Notes under the pieces: generated by a model | Seen by the model: only the letters and a program-made list of their open reading frames with translations | Databases searched by the model: none | What the model was told of the DNA's origin: nothing | Sequence record: MK573636 | Origin: Escherichia phage vB_EcoM_PHB13 | DNA: 64,000 nucleotides | Direction: 5' to 3' (one strand) | Program-made: the position numbers and the translations under genes | In this document: positions 6,795-62,770 of the stretch, piece by piece | Position numbering within the stretch: the first letter of the stretch is position 1 | How the letters are laid out: each line of letters begins with the position of its first letter

Positions 6795-7259
6795 ATGAAA
6801 TGGGAAGCTGGTAAGACCTATGCGTGGAAAGATGTAAAAGATGCAAACCAATTTTTTAAATGGTATGATGTTGATTATTTGAAATATCTGAGATTACCGT
6901 TTAAAGTTGCGTCGGTTGATGCGAAAAAAGGATACGTGCGGTCTGTTTATCTTCATGATGGAACTTATATGAGTTCAACCGATGTAGGTCTATCTTGTTG
7001 GTTTCTGGATCATGACCGTAGCAGATTTGAAGAAATTATTATTCCAGAAGAATCTAAATTAATTGATCTTCTCAAGTTGGCGATGGATAATTATAAAATC
7101 CGCTTTGAATGCAAATCACATGCGGCTATCGGTGCTAACGCCTTGCGTCATATCTCCAGTTTTGAAGAGTTGAAAGATTTTCTTGACAAAATGCCGGAAA
7201 GGGTGCAAGCTATACAGGAAGCAGAGAAAGCATTAAACGAACTTGATAAAATCGGTTAA
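6795..7259 (+). CDS. hypothetical protein, repeat-domain family (MKWEAGKTYAWKD...)
   Basis: ORF track 6780..7259, start moved to ATG after SD. Confidence 0.55.
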   Translation: MKWEAGKTYAWKDVKDANQFFKWYDVDYLKYLRLPFKVASVDAKKGYVRSVYLHDGTYMSSTDVGLSCWFLDHDRSRFEEIIIPEESKLIDLLKLAMDNYKIRFECKSHAAIGANALRHISSFEELKDFLDKMPERVQAIQEAEKALNELDKIG

Positions 7260-7271
7260 GGGGAATATATT

Positions 7272-8096
7272 ATGAAATGGGAAATTGGTAAAACTTACAC
7301 CTGGAAAGACGAAAACGCTAAAACTGAGTTTATTACTAACGGAGAAGGTGTTCTTTCTCCACTTAACAGCGATATTAGTGCAGCTATTGGTGACAAGCCA
7401 TTTACCATCATCGAGATCGAGGGTAACGGTTGGATTGATGCAATAGAGCTAGACGGTGTTTATCATACGGCGAAAACTGCTACAGGAAAAGACATTTGGA
7501 AGTCAACATATTTGTTTAGTCCATTTGATAGAAAATTCTTTCGTGAAGTTGAAGAAGTTCCCCAGAAATGGGAAGTTGGTAAAACTTATACTTGGAAAGA
7601 TATTAAGGCTATGACCGACTTCTGTCATTATGCCGAAAACGTATCTAACCTTAATTATGTTATTGCACGAGCAATAAATTATAGACCTTTTACTGTTAAA
7701 AATGTTCGTCCATGTGGGCAAATTGATGTAATTGAAATTGATGGTAAAGACCATACTCTAATGAGCGCAACCGAAGATAGAGACCATAAAGGAACTAGCT
7801 GGTTTATTGATTCTGATAGAAAATTCTTTCGTGAAGTAGAAGAATTGGAAGTTATAACCACTGATTCTAAGATCGTTGGACAGTTGAAACGTCTGTTTAG
7901 TAGTCGTTACGGCCTGACAATGGTTAAATTTGGCGAAGCAAATGAAGGTAAAACCTTTGAACGTTTCGATGATTTCATTTCGGCACTTGACAAGATGGAT
8001 GAAATCATGCAAGATCGCCAGAAGATTAAAGACCTTCAAGAAGACATTAAACGTCGTGAAGTTGAATTTTTGATTGGTAAAGAGCGAGGATGGTAA
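7272..8096 (+). CDS. hypothetical protein, repeat-domain family with two tandem domain copies (WEIGKTYTWKD ... DRKFFREVEE, twice)
   Basis: ORF track; about 23-nt identical DNA repeat near 7528 and 7812. Confidence 0.6.
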   Translation: MKWEIGKTYTWKDENAKTEFITNGEGVLSPLNSDISAAIGDKPFTIIEIEGNGWIDAIELDGVYHTAKTATGKDIWKSTYLFSPFDRKFFREVEEVPQKWEVGKTYTWKDIKAMTDFCHYAENVSNLNYVIARAINYRPFTVKNVRPCGQIDVIEIDGKDHTLMSATEDRDHKGTSWFIDSDRKFFREVEELEVITTDSKIVGQLKRLFSSRYGLTMVKFGEANEGKTFERFDDFISALDKMDEIMQDRQKIKDLQEDIKRREVEFLIGKERGW

Positions 8097-8097
8097 T

Positions 8098-8583
8098 ATG
8101 TTTGTTGCTGGCGTGACCTATCAGTGGAAAGATAAGAAAACGAGAGAAGATTTTGCAAACTTTAGCGTTGCAAATGATGCAATAGCAGAGTTTATCGGCG
8201 ACCGTCCATTTAAAGTTATTGCATTTGATCACCACCATGCATCGGATGTGAATTATGTTTCTGTGATTGAAATTGATGGCACGGTATACACCTGCTGCAA
8301 TGTTGATGATGTACGGGAATACGCGCACAACTGGTTTTTGCAATCAGAAGAACGTCATTTTAAAGTGGTATCGGCAGAGCTATCATCCGAAGCAATGTTG
8401 GAACAATTTTTCAACAACTACGAAGTTTCTGTACGTCGCTATGGCGAAGAAGAAGTGTTTAAAATCGATGATTACAATCAGTTTAAACGAGTATTCGCCA
8501 CTAAGTTACAGCGTGATTTTGAACGCGAGAAGCGCATCAAGGAACTGGAAGAAGAATTGGAAAGATTAAAGGCTGAGAAATGA
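8098..8583 (+). CDS. hypothetical protein, repeat-domain family (GVTYQWKDKK ... ERHFKVV), coiled-coil C-terminus
   Basis: ORF track 8074..8583, start moved to ATG after SD GAGGATGG. Confidence 0.55.
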   Translation: MFVAGVTYQWKDKKTREDFANFSVANDAIAEFIGDRPFKVIAFDHHHASDVNYVSVIEIDGTVYTCCNVDDVREYAHNWFLQSEERHFKVVSAELSSEAMLEQFFNNYEVSVRRYGEEEVFKIDDYNQFKRVFATKLQRDFEREKRIKELEEELERLKAEK

Positions 8584-8849
8584 TCGAGATATACGGTATA
8601 CCGAAAGAGGCTTATCATTGTTATGGTTGTATTAGTGCAATGAAGCTACTGGATGATCTGGGTATTCCGTATACACTTAAACCAGTATTCAAGCAGGTCG
8701 GGGTTGACATTATTCCCGACCGTGATATGATTGAAGAACTGGCGGGGAGGCTAAACTCAAAGAGCCTCCGGTTTGTATACCCCCAGATATTCATTGACAA
8801 CGAGCACATTGGAGGCTATAAAGAACTGAGGGCGATTTATGATTATTGA
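8580..8849 (+). CDS. nrdC: glutaredoxin/thioredoxin-like protein (NrdC/NrdH-like)
   Basis: 89 aa, CxxC motif CYGC near N-terminus, ...HIGGY...L motif; resembles T4 NrdC. Confidence 0.6.
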   Translation: MIEIYGIPKEAYHCYGCISAMKLLDDLGIPYTLKPVFKQVGVDIIPDRDMIEELAGRLNSKSLRFVYPQIFIDNEHIGGYKELRAIYDY

Positions 8850-8997
8850 GAATTTAGTTTCGGTGTTCATTATTGCTTTATTTGCTATAATGACTTTACC
8901 GTTGAAGAAGTGTAAACACTGTAACGGAACAGGATTGCGTGGTGATGGGTGTTGCGCTCATTGTCATGGATCTGGTAAAGTAAGTATCATTAAGTAA
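8839..8997 (+). CDS. small membrane-anchored peptide with two DnaJ-type CxxCxGxG zinc-finger motifs (52 aa)
   Basis: not in track (<60 aa); N-terminal hydrophobic helix then CKHCNGTG...CAHCHGSG. Confidence 0.3.
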   Translation: MIIENLVSVFIIALFAIMTLPLKKCKHCNGTGLRGDGCCAHCHGSGKVSIIK

Positions 8998-9018
8998 TTC
9001 TTGAGTGAGGAATATATT

Positions 9019-9306
9019 ATGTTAGTACACAATGCAATCGCACACATGGTTTATTCTCGATTTGGGCGCAGGGAAGAAATCAATATTACCGACGCAGATT
9101 TAGATCTGATGCAAGTAGAAGGTCAGACATATCTGAAAAATAACGGCGTGAATATCGGTAAAGCGCGTGTGCGTGAATTGTTGGTTGAATATATTCTCTC
9201 TGAATTTGGCATTAGTGCTTTCGGTGTGAAAGAGCTTGCACCTAAGCGCGAAATTTCTGATAAAATGATCAAGAAATGCCAGAAAGCACGACGTAAGGGT
9301 TTCTAA
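9019..9306 (+). CDS. hypothetical protein
   Basis: ORF track 9001..9306; ATG after SD GAGGAATATATT. Confidence 0.45.
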   Translation: MLVHNAIAHMVYSRFGRREEINITDADLDLMQVEGQTYLKNNGVNIGKARVRELLVEYILSEFGISAFGVKELAPKREISDKMIKKCQKARRKGF

Positions 9307-10775
9307 TGAAGATTGAAACATTAATCGCATTGCCAGCGGCGGGGAAAACTGATGCTATACTTTCCCACGTCCTAGAGACAAAAGAAAAAGCGGTTATTGC
9401 TTCGCCATCTCGTGTTTTAAGTGAACAATCTTACAATAAGTTTAAAAGAATGGGCGGTCGTGCTGTCTTGATCGATAGCACAAGACTAAGAAGCCTTAAG
9501 ACAGTGCAAGCGTCGATAATGCAATCAGTTAAAGACGGTGCTGATGTGATATTCATTACACATACAGCGTTATCTAATATGGAACGTTCAAAAATGTTTG
9601 GTGAATATGCTCTTTACATTGATGAAGTTCCTCAACTGGTTGAATTTAATGAGTATCCGTTTAAGTCTAATCTTGAACTTATCACGAAGCATTGCGAACC
9701 AATCGCCGACGAATCGGAATGCCTACAGAACTTAGTTCTAAAAGACTCTGAGAAGGCCGCTATCAAAGAAAAGATAGAAAGTGCAAAGGATGGTACTGAT
9801 ATGATCGATTCTTCTCTTAGAGGGCTTTATGAGGCGTTATTAGAGAAGAAAATCAACGTTATGGTAAAACATAACGAAGGACACCGGAAGAATGGGTCGA
9901 AAATTGTTTTCTTGAACGATAACAAACACGGTACGTGGGGAGACTTTAAAAAGGTTACGATAGCATGTGCAAATCTCTTTGATACATATAGCGGGAAGTA
10001 TCTACGATACTATGCAAATTGCGATTTTGTTCCGAGTGCGCTAGAATCCAGACTATATTTCAAAGAGTATAAAAATACAGATAGAGTTAATATCATCCTT
10101 ATGACGGACTCCGAACGATGGTCGCGTCACCAGTCAGAAACAAACAATACCTTTGAACGTCTTGTTGATATGGTTAAAAATGAATGTGGTGATGACTTCA
10201 TTTATACCGTGAATCGGGACCGTGAAGCGTGCACAAATGGTATTGGCGAGCGGATACCTTACGGATCTTATGGTCTTAACTCTTACATTCATCATAAAAA
10301 TGTTGCTGTGATGTTCAGCTTTAACCCTCAACGATGGGAGATTGATATTTTAAAAGGTCTTGCTAATAGTTGTGATCTCCCGACAAATGAGTTTTTGAAA
10401 GCGCGTCATGTGTCTGATTATCTGGAACCAGCATTTCAATTATGTTTGCGTTGTAACCTGAGAGACAACGAGAGCAAGGAGAATGTTAATCTATATGTTC
10501 CTGATTGGGCGTTGGTAGATTATCTAAAAACGTTTCTACCTAATGCCAATGTAATAACAGACAGAATGATTCCGCTAGAATGTGGTGAGCGTAAAGGGCG
10601 AAAATCATTTAAAAAGATGTTCGATTTTAACGAGCAAGAGAATGCAAGATTTAACGGATTTAAGTACCGCATGAAGAAAAAGGGAAAAACTCTTGATCCG
10701 TCTGACGGTGAATCAGTAGAGATGGTTAGAGTGTGGATAACTAAGCAAAGAAAGTATAATGGCAATGGGGAATAG
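9306..10775 (+). CDS. P-loop NTPase of unknown function (Walker A ALPAAGKT, Walker B LYIDEV)
   Basis: ORF track 489 aa; Walker motifs read directly; AGA/AGG-rich codon usage unlike neighbours. Confidence 0.55.
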   Translation: MKIETLIALPAAGKTDAILSHVLETKEKAVIASPSRVLSEQSYNKFKRMGGRAVLIDSTRLRSLKTVQASIMQSVKDGADVIFITHTALSNMERSKMFGEYALYIDEVPQLVEFNEYPFKSNLELITKHCEPIADESECLQNLVLKDSEKAAIKEKIESAKDGTDMIDSSLRGLYEALLEKKINVMVKHNEGHRKNGSKIVFLNDNKHGTWGDFKKVTIACANLFDTYSGKYLRYYANCDFVPSALESRLYFKEYKNTDRVNIILMTDSERWSRHQSETNNTFERLVDMVKNECGDDFIYTVNRDREACTNGIGERIPYGSYGLNSYIHHKNVAVMFSFNPQRWEIDILKGLANSCDLPTNEFLKARHVSDYLEPAFQLCLRCNLRDNESKENVNLYVPDWALVDYLKTFLPNANVITDRMIPLECGERKGRKSFKKMFDFNEQENARFNGFKYRMKKKGKTLDPSDGESVEMVRVWITKQRKYNGNGE

Positions 10776-58209: not shown

Positions 58210-58774
58210 GTGGCAAAAACAAAATTTTGGGATATCGAGACACAGAAAGCGATAAAAGGTAGATTTTATCATGTTGATGGAATATTATACCATTTAAAGG
58301 ATTCTGTATCTGCTGGATTCCGAAAAGAAGGGTCCAGATACAAAAAAAGGTGATGTGGTAAGGGTACGTCTCCATAAAGAAGGATATTTATACTTTACAT
58401 TTTATAACAATGGTCATAAACTTAATCTGTTTGTACATAGAGTTGTCTGGTTTTTAGAGTATGGTACTCAGGTTGAACTAATAGATCACATAGACCAAGA
58501 CAAAACTAACAATAGACCGTCAAACATGAGAGAAGCAACAGAACAGCAAAATCAGTTTAACGTCTCAAAGAAAAAGGCTTGCCATAGCAAATATAAAGGT
58601 GTATCATTATCAACAAGCAAGAAAAAGCCGTGGAAGGCGTATATTGTTATCAATCGAAAGAATATACATCTAGGATACTTTGAGACAGAAGTTGAGGCGG
58701 CTAAGGCTTATGACCGTGCAGCACATGAAAGAGTTGGCGAGTATGCTTATTTAAATTTTCCAAAAAGAGGATGA
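58210..58774 (+). pseudogene. HNH-AP2 homing endonuclease split by frameshift at an A7 tract (N-terminal fragment about 58210..58353, HNH+AP2 portion 58355..58774)
   Basis: HNH motif HRVVWFL...IDHIDQDKTNNRPSNMRE and AP2-like YKGVS...WKAYI...GYFETEVEAAKAYD; removing one A near 58342-58348 joins the frames. Confidence 0.5.
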
Positions 58775-58780
58775 TATATT

Positions 58781-58966
58781 ATGGTTAAAGTTGATTTGTC
58801 AGAAGGTGCAAAATGGGTAGTTGACAGAATCCCTGATAAGGATTATAATTATTTCCGTGCCGAATTAAACAATGCAATTCTGCGAGTTATGGAAAAGTAC
58901 GGGTATGACCGTGAAGTATCTAACTCGTTTGGTGAATATGTTGTTGTGAGAGTGGAGAGAACTTAA
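58781..58966 (+). CDS. hypothetical protein
   Basis: ORF track, 61 aa. Confidence 0.35.
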   Translation: MVKVDLSEGAKWVVDRIPDKDYNYFRAELNNAILRVMEKYGYDREVSNSFGEYVVVRVERT

Positions 58967-58968
58967 TT

Positions 58969-59916
58969 ATGACGTATAACCCGTTTACAAAAACTACCGC
59001 TACACTTAATGATTTCTTCGATGATCCAGAAGATAAACTGCCGGAAGGTGTGCATTTGATTGATATGTCGCAGCTTATGATTGCTACTATCTCGCATACC
59101 TTTAAACCGGAAGATCCTATTAGTGAAGGTATGATCCGTCATCTTATTCTTGACACCATGCGTTATAATATGACAAAATTCAAAGAGCAATACCCAATTA
59201 CGGTACTTGCCTTTGATTCAAGCAAAGGTTACTGGCGACGTGATATCGCACCTTACTATAAACGCAACCGTAAGGAAAAACGAGACGCAGATCCGCGTGA
59301 TTGGGAGATGATCTTTGCTGCGATCAATAAGATCACCGAAGAGTTTAAAGAGAACATGCCTTATCACGTTATTAAGGTTGACAAAGTTGAAGCAGATGAT
59401 ATAATCGCTGTGTTAACTAAAAAGTTTTCTGTAGAAGGTCGCCAGGTGCTAATCAACTCCGGTGATGGTGACTACACACAGTTGCACAAATACAAAAACG
59501 TGAAACAGTGGGCACCAGTACAGAAAACATGGAAGAAGTGCAAATATGGTAGCCCATACAAAGACCTTATGGTAAAATGTGTTAAGGGTGACGCAAAAGA
59601 CGGTGTAGCTTCTATCAAGTGCCGTAGTGATTTCATTATCTCACGACTGGAAGGGGAACGAGCTAAACCAATTGCAACCAAATGGTTAGAGCAAATTTTC
59701 GATGCCGAAGATCCAAAGTCTTTGATGACAGAGGAAGAAGCACGACGCTTTGACGAAAACCGCGAACTTATTGATTTTGAATTTATTCCTGATAACATCG
59801 AATATGAAATTTTGTTAGCATGGGAGAAATCTAAACCAGCACCACGCGGTAAAATTTATAACTATTTTGTAACAAATGCGTTAGTTAAAATGTTGCAGAA
59901 AATTGGTGAGTTCTAA
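58969..59916 (+). CDS. rnh: RNase H (5'-3' exonuclease, FEN family)
   Basis: strong similarity to T4 RNase H (GYWRRD, EADDIIAVLTKKFS, GDGDYTQLHKY, PRGKIYNYFV). Confidence 0.85.
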   Translation: MTYNPFTKTTATLNDFFDDPEDKLPEGVHLIDMSQLMIATISHTFKPEDPISEGMIRHLILDTMRYNMTKFKEQYPITVLAFDSSKGYWRRDIAPYYKRNRKEKRDADPRDWEMIFAAINKITEEFKENMPYHVIKVDKVEADDIIAVLTKKFSVEGRQVLINSGDGDYTQLHKYKNVKQWAPVQKTWKKCKYGSPYKDLMVKCVKGDAKDGVASIKCRSDFIISRLEGERAKPIATKWLEQIFDAEDPKSLMTEEEARRFDENRELIDFEFIPDNIEYEILLAWEKSKPAPRGKIYNYFVTNALVKMLQKIGEF

Positions 59917-59926
59917 GGGTTGACAT

Positions 59927-60523
59927 ATGAAAGAACTTGAATTAAAATACTATGCACACTCACAAATTGGCGTCGAAACAATCTGTGATTTGTGGGTAGC
60001 AATGTATGACGGGTACAATCTAGTAGATCGTGCTAACACTCTAAAACACGAATTTTATTATGATACCGAAGATCATGCACTGCGTCGAAAAGGAATTTAT
60101 GCTAGACTTGACGTTAATAGATCATTGATCATGGTCAAAATAGGTGATAGTGAATCTGGACTCTTCAACCGAGAAGAAATTACTTTTTCAACAACGGATG
60201 ATTTCTATCACTATGTTGATAGTCTAGGCGTAAACTCCGACCTTATCATTCCTTTACTTCAAGTAATGACATACCGCAAGTCATTGACACTTGACCTTGA
60301 GGGTGCTATAGTGGAAATGTGCAAAGACACTTTCTATTATTGCAAAGTCGGCGAAGTAATGGGAGATGCTCACTATGAACTTGAGTTCGAGTTAAAATCA
60401 GGTGATGAAAAAGCACTTGACATTATCCGAGAAATGATGCTAGAATATGTTGGTGACGATTTAAGTCCTAGCGAAATTTCAAAAGCTGAACGTGGTTTTC
60501 AATTAATGACGAAAGAGGGTTAA
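59927..60523 (+). CDS. CYTH-domain protein (triphosphate tunnel metalloenzyme; class IV adenylate cyclase / thiamine-triphosphatase-like)
   Basis: N-terminal ExExK (MKELELK), YYDTEDHALRRKG, C-terminal YELEFEL; motif-level match to the CYTH family. Confidence 0.6.
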   Translation: MKELELKYYAHSQIGVETICDLWVAMYDGYNLVDRANTLKHEFYYDTEDHALRRKGIYARLDVNRSLIMVKIGDSESGLFNREEITFSTTDDFYHYVDSLGVNSDLIIPLLQVMTYRKSLTLDLEGAIVEMCKDTFYYCKVGEVMGDAHYELEFELKSGDEKALDIIREMMLEYVGDDLSPSEISKAERGFQLMTKEG

Positions 60524-60528
60524 ATATT

Positions 60529-60804
60529 ATGACTGAACAGAAAAAAGAAAAAGTAGTATTCGATGAAAATGTACACGGAAATACCCTGGCACAACTGATT
60601 AAAGAAGCCAGCGATCAGAAAACCATTCAAGAAGCATACGGCGATAAGATCAAAGAGATCAAACAGCGTGCTAAAGAAGAATTAGGCGTAGACGGTAAAA
60701 TGTGGGGCATTCTGTTTAAACTGTATCACCAGCAACAGCGCGAAACCTTCGAAGCAGAACGCGATGAAGCGGTAGAACTCTATGATCGGGTGTTCAATGC
60801 TTAA
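60529..60804 (+). CDS. hypothetical protein (size and position compatible with T4 dsbA)
   Basis: ORF track, 91 aa. Confidence 0.3.
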   Translation: MTEQKKEKVVFDENVHGNTLAQLIKEASDQKTIQEAYGDKIKEIKQRAKEELGVDGKMWGILFKLYHQQQRETFEAERDEAVELYDRVFNA

Positions 60805-61051
60805 TGAACATGCGGTAAAAGCCGCGAATAAAACAGCAAACGGTCTTGCAATCGAAAAACTGGTTGTTGAAGAGGGATTGACCTATCTTGAAGCAACAAC
60901 TCAGTTTGTAGAGGAAAACTCTATCGAATATGGTCACTATCAGAAGTATATTCCGGTGTCCATTATTGACAAGATCACACAAGAATGTATAGTAAATAGA
61001 ACGCTCAGGAAGGGAGTGATCGACGAACCGACCAACACTCTCGATATTTAA
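60782..61051 (+). CDS. hypothetical protein (position compatible with late-transcription co-activator gp33)
   Basis: ORF track, 89 aa; position only. Confidence 0.3.
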   Translation: MIGCSMLNEHAVKAANKTANGLAIEKLVVEEGLTYLEATTQFVEENSIEYGHYQKYIPVSIIDKITQECIVNRTLRKGVIDEPTNTLDI

Positions 61052-61060
61052 GGGGTATGT

Positions 61061-61741
61061 ATGATCAGAAACCGTCTTCCTCCAGATCCAGATATGCGAA
61101 TTAATGCTAAATCTGTGTATATGTTATATTGCATGATGAAAGCTCATATGAACGGGCGTTATGATTGCGTAAAATACAATTGGAGGATGCGGTTGTCTGA
61201 TGCCGCATTCAATAAACGCAGAGATAAGTATTATTTCGCAAAATTAGCGGAAAAGTACAATCTAAGAGAACTATACTTCCTATTCCTAAGCAATCTGGTG
61301 GCTAATACCGATGCATGGGTAGGTGAAATCACTGATGTTGACGCATACGGCTTTTATATGGAATACATAGGAAAGATAACCGATGCAGCAACAAGATTTG
61401 ACGATGACATTAAAAGTCTGGTATACTTCTCCGAGAAACGCGGGGTTACTCTTAAAGAGCTAATTACATACAATCCCGCAACCGAAACAAGCGGTATCTT
61501 TAAACTACTGCAAAATCGGATTATATCGTTTGAGTCGTTTATGTTGTTAGATAGCTTTCTAAATATAATCGACGAACACGACAAGGTAGCCAAAGACTTG
61601 ATTTGGCAAACTTATAGTGTTAAAATGAAGGCGTACAAGAAACTACTTGTTATTGACGCCGCAAAAGCAAGAGCATTATTTGTTAAAGTAGTTAAAGAGT
61701 GTAAAGAAATATCTCAATTAAAAACCGAAACAAATAGTTGA
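61061..61741 (+). CDS. 59: helicase loader gp59
   Basis: strong similarity to T4 gp59 (NGRYDCVKYNWRMRLSDAAFNKRRDKYYF, ISFESFMLLDSFLNIIDEHD). Confidence 0.85.
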   Translation: MIRNRLPPDPDMRINAKSVYMLYCMMKAHMNGRYDCVKYNWRMRLSDAAFNKRRDKYYFAKLAEKYNLRELYFLFLSNLVANTDAWVGEITDVDAYGFYMEYIGKITDAATRFDDDIKSLVYFSEKRGVTLKELITYNPATETSGIFKLLQNRIISFESFMLLDSFLNIIDEHDKVAKDLIWQTYSVKMKAYKKLLVIDAAKARALFVKVVKECKEISQLKTETNS

Positions 61742-61766
61742 CAAGTAAATTTAAATCTGTATAATA
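61738..61766 (+). promoter_or_regulatory. sigma70-like promoter TTGACA-16bp-TATAAT upstream of gene 32, followed by AU-rich leader
   Basis: read directly. Confidence 0.4.
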
Positions 61767-61801
61767 ATCTAGTAAATTAATCAAAAGAAGGAATAGTGAA
61801 T

Positions 61802-62770
61802 ATGTTTAAACGCCAAGATTCTTCCAAACTGCAAGCTCAACTGGCCGCACTGAAAGGTGGCAACGGTTTCTCCAAAGAAGATCCGAAAGAGTGGAAGATT
61901 AAGACTGATGCAGCAGGTAACGGTGAAGCCCTGATTCGCTTCCTGCCGTCTAAGACAGAAGACGGTCTGCCGATTGTGAAACTGGTAAACCATTCCTTCA
62001 AAGTTAATGGCAAATGGTATTGGGAAAACTGCTCCAGCACCCACGGTGATTTTGATTCTTGCCCTGTGTGCAAATATATTAACGAAAAAGACCTGTACAA
62101 TACCGATAAAACAGAATGGCAACTGATTAAGCGTAAAGCGTCTTACTACGCAAATATTCTGGTACTGAAAGATCCTCAAGCACCAGAAAATGAAGGTAAG
62201 GTATTCAAATTCCGCTTCGGTCAGAAAATTTATGATAAGATCGTTGCAATGGTGAACGTGAATACCGATATGGGCGAAGTTCCGGTCGATGTAACTTGTG
62301 TGTTCTCTGGTGCTAACTTCCTCCTGAAAGCTAAGAAGGTTGATAAACACCAGAACTATGATGATTCTCGTTTCATGCAGCAATCACAGCTTCCGAAAAT
62401 TGAAGACGAAGCATATCAGAAATATCTGATGGAAAACATGGTTGATCTGAGTGAGATTGTAGCGCCTAGCCAGTTTAAACCGTTCGATGAACTGGAAACC
62501 AAATTTAAGAAAACTATGGGCGTTTCTATGGTAGCTGGTGCTGCGGCTTCCAGTGCTGCGGCAGCGATTAACAGCCAGCTTGACGATTTTGACGCACAGA
62601 TGAATGCATTCGATTCTGGTATGACCGCAGCTAGCACTGTAGTTGGTATTAACGCAGCTAGCACGGCGTTAGATTCTTCCGCTGATGACCTGATGGCATC
62701 GCTGGATCTGGGTGGCGGTACTTCCTCCGCTTCTGATCTGGATGATCTCGACGCTCTGTTAGGGATGTAA
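61802..62770 (+). CDS. 32: single-stranded DNA-binding protein gp32
   Basis: strong similarity to T4 gp32 (VIRFLPSK, zinc site [24 protein letters not shown]); start at ATG 61802. Confidence 0.9.

Follow-up and report, generated by a model that had tools for sequence, protein, structure and literature searches.

A gene for a small protein of the CYTH / triphosphate tunnel metalloenzyme (TTM) superfamily was analyzed in Escherichia phage vB_EcoM_PHB13 (sequence record MK573636), within a 64,000-nucleotide stretch of DNA that is referred to here as the window. The window was assigned to Krischvirus (RB49-like T-even coliphages), and in the CYTH region its DNA is 98.5% identical to vB_EcoM_011D4 and to the Krischvirus RB49 record OZ035808.1. 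An original prediction, made from the letters of the window, had placed a 198-residue CYTH open reading frame (ORF) between rnh and the dsbA/33/59/32 block. This ORF was found at exactly the same coordinates and with the neighbors as described:

58969-59916, rnh, the 5' neighbor of the CYTH gene
59915-59919 (+), Shine-Dalgarno-like AAGGG, read from the sequence, 8-12 nt 5' of the CYTH ATG
59927-60523 (+), CYTH/TTM gene, orthologue of RB49ORF244c, 198 amino acids plus stop
60529-60804, dsbA, the 3' neighbor of the CYTH gene
60782-61051, gene 33, after dsbA
61061-61741, gene 59, after gene 33
61796-62770, gene 32, after gene 59

The CYTH ORF begins with ATG and is preceded by an in-frame TGA at 59921-23; thus, its N-terminus is fixed and no N-terminal extension is possible. 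We judge it to be a real gene and not a chance ORF, because the ratio of nonsynonymous to synonymous substitution (dN/dS, omega) between its alleles is 0.2-0.26, it is found in 58/58 related phage records, and PHROG 14893 ('unknown function') matches its product over the full length (E 1e-131). The CYTH assignment is not a new observation, as the RB49-type gene has been flagged as a CYTH protein since 2003-2006: the GenBank record of RB49 notes ORF244c as 'similar to P45267, P30871, HI1598, ygiF', and RB49ORF244c was listed as a CYTH domain (E=0.0026) by Nolan et al. 2006 (PMC1524935). Annotations among the 58 records are mostly 'hypothetical protein', with a few entries of 'inorganic triphosphatase' (Makalu phages) or 'adenylate cyclase' (AV108, KMB43). 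New here are the hydrolase-type assignment, a non-canonical Y-x-R-x-D tunnel strand, the confinement of the gene to the slot between rnh and dsbA, and a recombining allelic cassette.

The phage protein is a member of the CYTH/TTM superfamily by profile, predicted fold and motifs. The Pfam CYTH profile (PF01928) matched residues 41-190 at 26.6 bits, above the gathering cutoff of 23.2 bits (E 6e-6), and hhalign comparison of the phage-family profile to a profile of outgroup, YgiF-like CYTH proteins gave a probability of 99.9% (E 6.5e-36, 184 columns). An AlphaFold2 model built from 18 family members (mean predicted local distance difference test score, pLDDT, 90.1; predicted template modeling score, pTM, 0.83) has eight long strands plus helices and forms the eight-stranded antiparallel beta-tunnel of the superfamily. 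The profile search and the structure prediction that had been proposed as checks both agree with the CYTH assignment. The best match of the model in BFVD outside the family was at 16% identity with a template modeling (TM) score of 0.52, and a search of NCBIfam with the phage protein gave no match.

Residue conservation was analyzed in a family alignment of 18 members that span 48-97% identity, in a MAFFT L-INS-i alignment of 74 sequences that included 62 outgroup proteins, and in a second alignment (A2) of 68 sequences with outgroup CYTH proteins. For comparison to Escherichia coli YgiF, PDB chain indices were offset by +2 from residue numbering. Residue roles were taken from Martinez et al. 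2015 (PMC4641920). The motifs map to the gene as follows:

59933-59947 (+), codons E3-L-E5-L-K7, the ExExK hallmark (metal site 2 and phosphate binding), equivalent to YgiF E4/E6/K8
60098-60112 (+), codons Y58-A-R60-L-D62, with R60 as the catalytic Arg (YgiF R56) by MAFFT, hhalign and A2
60377-60391 (+), codons E151-L-E153-F-E155, with E153 equivalent to YgiF E160 (metal 1) and E155 to YgiF E162 (metal 2)
60479-60508 (+), C-terminal plug-helix motif S185-K-A-E-R-G-F-Q-L-M194 (SKAARGYHLA in YgiF), from conservation and a model helix at 186-194

The ExExK, YYDT and ELEFEL elements named in the original prediction proved to be real hallmarks, as E3-x-E5-x-K7, Y44/D46 and E151-x-E153-x-E155 were invariant in 18/18 family members; by contrast, the 'LRRKG' segment that had been listed beside them was not conserved. 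The acidic motifs were also retained on alignment to the outgroup, with E3, E5, K7, Y44, D46, E153 and E155 invariant among the 68 sequences of A2. On strand 1, E3, E5 and K7 were kept in the whole family and in 61/62 outgroup proteins, the remaining one having a gap. The basic residues of the tunnel behaved similarly: K71, R82, R117 and K186 were invariant and R189 was at least 90% conserved. In the plug helix, S185 and G190 likewise reached at least 90% conservation in the 68-sequence alignment, and the SKAxRG of YgiF was retained. Further lining residues were peculiar to the phage family in the 74-sequence alignment, namely Y9, K40, F80, T115, F136, Y138 and H149.

The alignments conflicted in register at the strand that carries the catalytic arginine. 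HMMER sequence and profile-to-sequence alignments put Y58 opposite YgiF R56, a shift of 2 residues, whereas MAFFT L-INS-i, hhalign and A2 put R60 at this position. We accepted the R60 register and rejected that of HMMER because R60 is invariant across the family while position 58 varies (Tyr, Val, Ile), because R60 falls in a column that is Arg in 60/62 outgroup proteins (at least 90% Arg in A2), and because the 2-residue indel then lands in the hairpin loop 63-66, which is itself of variable length within the family and is modeled with 4 residues between strands 57-62 and 67-76. The R60 register is preferred with good confidence, a minor part of the doubt remaining. With this register, the phage tunnel strand reads Y58-x-R60-x-D62 in place of the small-x-R-x-R of YgiF-like proteins, the outgroup having Ala/Ser/Gly at the position of Y58 in 55/62 proteins and Arg at that of D62 in 59/62, and every catalytic and metal-binding residue would be present.

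To determine the class of the enzyme, we used the discriminating features published by Vogt et al. 2021 (PMC8233210) and by Martinez et al. 2015. Class IV adenylate cyclases have HF four residues ahead of ExExK (HFxxxxExExK), a strict Ala in place of the second Glu of ExE, and a small neutral residue in place of the first Arg of RxR (PMC8233210). Compared to such cyclases (CyaB; Yersinia pestis 2fjt/3n0y), the phage protein differed at all three. The HF motif is absent and impossible, as only M1-K2 stand ahead of E3 with a stop codon upstream; the second Glu of ExE, a metal 2 ligand, is kept as the invariant E155; and R60 is kept as the first Arg of RxR in the preferred register, the loss typical of cyclases appearing only under the HMMER register. 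R60 is the counterpart of YgiF R56 and AtTTM3 R52 with the same HMMER pairwise disagreement of 2 residues, and in YgiF an R56A variant is strongly inhibited in activity (PMC4641920). By these published motif rules, the phage protein is most likely a hydrolase-type TTM and not an adenylate cyclase. The option that the enzyme could make a nucleotide signal, which the original prediction had left standing, is disfavored by the same rules.

Among known hydrolases, E. coli YgiF (P30871; PDB 5a60/5a61), a CYTH-CHAD inorganic triphosphatase, was compared in detail. The phage protein is only 22-23% identical to YgiF, and its 198 residues have no match to the CHAD domain, the chain ending 4 residues past the plug helix, while YgiF is of 433 residues with CHAD. 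In the tunnel strand the phage protein has Tyr for Gly54 and Asp (D62) for Arg58 of YgiF and so does not have both arginines of the YgiF type; its hairpin is 2 residues shorter, and the lining is changed at K40, F80, T115, F136 and H149. Position 58, small in YgiF-like proteins, is the site of the thiamine triphosphatase Trp (W53), which stacks the thiazole ring, or organic moiety, of the substrate (PMC8233210). The 25-kDa thiamine triphosphatases (mouse 5A64, human 3bhd) were nonetheless less like the phage protein overall than YgiF, and they have a complete W/Y-x-R-x-R of which the second motif Arg is Asp in the phage protein. Other TTM enzymes occur in viral genomes (Aeh1ORF004c, CYTH triphosphatases of jumbo phages and Cet1-like capping triphosphatases of giant viruses), but none was closely related to the Krischvirus family.

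The CYTH gene was intact in 58/58 Krischvirus records, and only in those, in the phage collection. A search of 5.8 billion proteins yielded 43 clusters with identities down to 45%. An exhaustive hidden Markov model (HMM) search of 1.84 billion representatives gave three clusters at about 1e-30 or better (P0040, 2.5e-103; P0043, 4.1e-74; P0044, 2.0e-30), followed by P0045 at 1.7e-15; the remaining ~200 matches were ordinary CYTH proteins of ~200 residues and proteins of ~500 residues, of which the one scanned, the outgroup protein P0049, carries CYTH plus CHAD. A scan of IMG/VR revealed only two close loci. In all members with readable context (Skers, P0042, P0043, P0044 and P0045), the CYTH gene was directly 5' of dsbA-33, and it was also 3' of rnh wherever the contig extended far enough. 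By contrast, no gene was present at the rnh|dsbA junction in the records of T2, one Dhakavirus and one Jiaodavirus, where the spacing was 8-10 nt; this agrees with the earlier statement that no counterpart is known at this position in T4. Among the contexts that could be read, the family thus occurs only in Krischvirus-like phages and only in their rnh|dsbA slot, and the occupied slot in all readable members together with its absence from the three other phages points to an old, lineage-specific insertion into a block of replication and late-transcription genes. Recent capture of ygiF from the host was rejected, as the identity is only 22-23% and the closest relatives from cells are scattered, an archaeal metagenome-assembled genome (MAG) among them. 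Because of this scatter, no donor can be named.

Within the slot, the CYTH gene is mosaic, with two parts that were delimited by sliding-window identity, comparison of the neighbors and DNA identity to Skers:

59940-60371 (+), variable allelic cassette, approximately codons 5-148
60372-60523 (+), constant 3' block, codons 149-198, strand 8 plus plug helix, at 98-100% DNA identity even to Skers

Compared to Skers, the DNA was 97-100% identical in rnh, dsbA and gene 33, 45-65% identical across 59,940-60,370, and 98-100% identical from 60,372 to the stop codon. The cassette was 75-90% identical in DNA to Phi1, ECD7 and JK32, with flanking genes at 95-100%. Protein identities to the window (%) were as follows:

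Skers: rnh 97, CYTH 58, dsbA 100, gene 33 94, gene 59 98, gene 32 99
P0042: rnh 99, CYTH 58, dsbA 96, gene 33 93, gene 59 100, gene 32 94
P0043: rnh 79, CYTH 45, dsbA 78, gene 33 80; genes 59 and 32, no value
P0044: CYTH 36, dsbA 75, gene 33 74; rnh and genes 59 and 32, no value

As CYTH protein identity is low while the neighbors are near-identical, at least four or five deep CYTH allele lineages appear to circulate among nearly identical genomes. All of the alleles are under purifying selection and by this measure functional: the dN/dS of 0.2-0.26 given above is that of the cassette, where synonymous divergence (dS) was 0.47-0.64 compared to 0.11-0.23 in the constant 3' part. When codons were split by strand parity, omega was 0.07-0.17 for tunnel-facing codons and 0.27-0.39 for the rest. 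Positive (diversifying) selection on the CYTH surface was tested by omega and none was seen, with values below 0.4 everywhere. Within the cassette, 23/39 tunnel-facing positions were invariant compared to 2/41 outward-facing positions (Mann-Whitney p 1e-5). We read this pattern as that of old alleles that share one active site and are swapped by recombination. The last 50 codons of the gene (60372-60523) are near-identical in DNA between alleles whose first 148 codons are synonymous-saturated; this block holds an early-promoter match at 60417-60446 and may therefore be constrained as a regulatory region in addition to its coding function.

Other mosaic features were noted around the gene. A second short mosaic patch lies at the 3' end of rnh (59746-59806), with 67-78% DNA identity to RB49, Skers and Phi1 and ~100% to ECD7 and JK32; outside of it, rnh is 95-100% identical. 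In Skers (L002), genes 59 and 32 are separated by an HNH homing endonuclease, and gene 32 is followed by a GIY-YIG nuclease (6802-7398 and 8554-9732, respectively); the window lacks both at these sites. Such mobile nucleases are common in the gene block and could promote the local recombination observed around the CYTH gene.

The exact pattern TTGACA-N16-18-TANAAT was found at 15 sites in the window (1884-62861), all on the + strand, compared to 0.30 expected. These include sites at 58821, 59378, 59920, 60417, 61738 and 62834, and the site at 61738-61765 coincides with the early promoter annotated for gene 32 in the RB49 record. The 15 sites look like the near-consensus sigma-70 early promoter set of the phage. 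Those placed upstream of or within the CYTH gene include:

58821-58849 (+), consensus early (sigma-70 type) promoter 5' of rnh, 12/12 match, the probable source of a rnh-CYTH transcript
59378-59405 (+), consensus early promoter inside rnh, 5' of the CYTH gene
60417-60446 (+), early-promoter match within the constant 3' block, from which dsbA/33/59 could be transcribed (a predicted function)

Given the two copies 5' of the CYTH gene (58821 and 59378), this gene is likely to be co-transcribed early with rnh. The match at 60417-60446 may be one reason for the conservation of the 3' block at the DNA level. At 59920-59948, a further match has its -35 element just ahead of the CYTH ATG and its -10 element in codons 6-8, and would start transcripts inside the CYTH gene.

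From the gene, its family and predicted fold, residue conservation, synteny and mosaicism, we infer catalysis, expression timing and substrate class as follows. The explanation that we favor, and hold to be probable, is that the phage encodes a stand-alone YgiF-like TTM without CHAD that is a two-metal phosphohydrolase and is probably made early. The enzyme would be synthesized early in infection from sigma-70-type promoters common to rnh. By the mechanism established for the CYTH/TTM family, a substrate triphosphate would sit centrally in the eight-stranded tunnel, held by K7, R60, K71, R82, R117, K186 and R189. Metal 1 would bridge the triphosphate to E153. E3, E5 and E155 would bind metal 2, which would activate the attacking water for removal of the terminal phosphate, and R60 would aid the leaving group. 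Hydrolysis of inorganic triphosphate (PPPi) in vitro is expected by analogy to relatives such as YgiF. The presence of Y58 at the ring-stacking position of thiamine triphosphatase, of D62 in place of the second Arg and of K40 suggests that in nature the enzyme may act on an organic or nucleotide-like triphosphate and not on bare PPPi; against this hint, the two most remote family members (P0044 and P0045) do not have Y58.

Several points weigh against the hydrolase explanation. The structure of the phage protein is a prediction, and the Pfam score is marginal and spans residues 41-190 only. With D62, a phosphate-binding Arg found in 59/62 outgroup proteins is lost, and hydrolysis could be impaired or altered if the HMMER register were right. 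Simple scavenging of PPPi also looks redundant, because PPPi is undetectable in E. coli and is cleared mainly by pyrophosphatase, with YgiF, which hydrolyzes PPPi specifically, accounting for a marginal share (Kohn et al. 2012). The dNTP triphosphohydrolases used in defense are one conceivable source of PPPi in infected cells, which is conjecture only.

An unlikely alternative, though one with several points in its favor, is that the protein is a counter-defense or nucleotide-pool enzyme that hydrolyzes a specific triphosphate nucleotide, such as the chain-terminating 3'-deoxy-3',4'-didehydro-nucleoside triphosphates (ddhNTPs) of viperin, a pppGpp/pppApp alarmone or some other nucleotide that is toxic or serves immunity; the base would stack on Y58. 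The aromatic residue at the position equivalent to W53, the status of the gene as a lineage-specific accessory and the exchange of its four or five deep allele lineages between near-identical genomes, a pattern often seen for host-interaction genes, would all fit, as would the proposal of Iyer et al. 2021 that CYTH and MazG triphosphatases, found scattered in jumbo phages, degrade unmodified NTPs. The allele exchange is compatible with a host-interaction gene but is no proof of one. Weighing on the other side, the exterior of the protein (omega 0.27-0.39) gave no sign of positive selection, the tunnel lining that would set specificity is the conserved part, and the remote members carry Val or Ile instead of Tyr at position 58. 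The PADLOC-DB models of anti-phage defense and candidate defense proteins gave no match to the CYTH protein at E <= 10, a literature search found no relevant paper linking CYTH/TTM to phage defense or counter-defense or to Krischvirus, and Krischvirus is not known to overcome any defense system by means of this gene. Slightly less likely is a dedicated counter-measure against a host immune triphosphate nucleotide (e.g., viperin ddhNTPs or an alarmone) in which the Y-x-R-x-D tunnel is fitted to a nucleobase and cassettes are exchanged in response to variable hosts. The signal p3diT of Clover was considered as a substrate and dropped, as p3diT is inhibitory and its destruction would not help the phage.

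We consider it improbable that the protein is an RNA 5'-triphosphatase that removes the gamma-phosphate from ppp-RNA (host or phage transcripts, or primers later removed by the neighboring RNase H) and in this way alters RNA decay or primer processing; the Cet1-like RNA triphosphatase / viral capping branch was not the closest fold or profile match of the phage protein. A cyclase (class IV adenylate cyclase or another nucleotidyl cyclase) that forms cyclic AMP or another cyclic nucleotide during infection, in line with the annotation of a few GenBank records, is very improbable and was rejected on all three of the motifs above, and the best matches of the protein are hydrolases. Equally hard to credit is a non-catalytic binder of a phosphate-rich ligand or a decaying remnant gene, for although one phosphate-binding Arg is lost (D62) and the protein scores only marginally against Pfam and PDB sequences, neither the metal ligands nor the catalytic Arg vary, the tunnel is under strong purifying selection and the gene is intact in every one of the 58 records.

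The main present value of the hydrolase-type TTM assignment is a correction of annotation, as the gene product is called neither an adenylate cyclase nor a hypothetical protein by this analysis. Our literature search found no functional study of any phage CYTH/TTM enzyme. The protein is a tractable target, being small, predicted with high confidence and found in phages that are easily handled (RB49, Phi1 and JSE). Knowledge of its substrate would tell whether phage replication involves manipulation of PPPi, polyphosphate or a nucleotide triphosphate, and the unusual Y-x-R-x-D strand would extend the rules that tie TTM motifs to substrates.

Two further ORFs were noted upstream of rnh. At 58355-58774 (+), the window has a 139-residue homing-endonuclease ORF (HNH_3 plus AP2), preceded in another frame by a 47-residue ORF (58210-58353) that may be the N-terminal part of the endonuclease, so that the gene may be frameshifted or split; this insertion is present in 8/58 Krischvirus records and absent from RB49, Phi1, ECD7, JK32 and Skers. 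Between gene 34 and rnh (58781-58966, +), a conserved ORF of 61 residues, the orthologue of RB49ORF246c and without a family assignment (best Pfam E 0.2), contains the early-promoter match at 58821.
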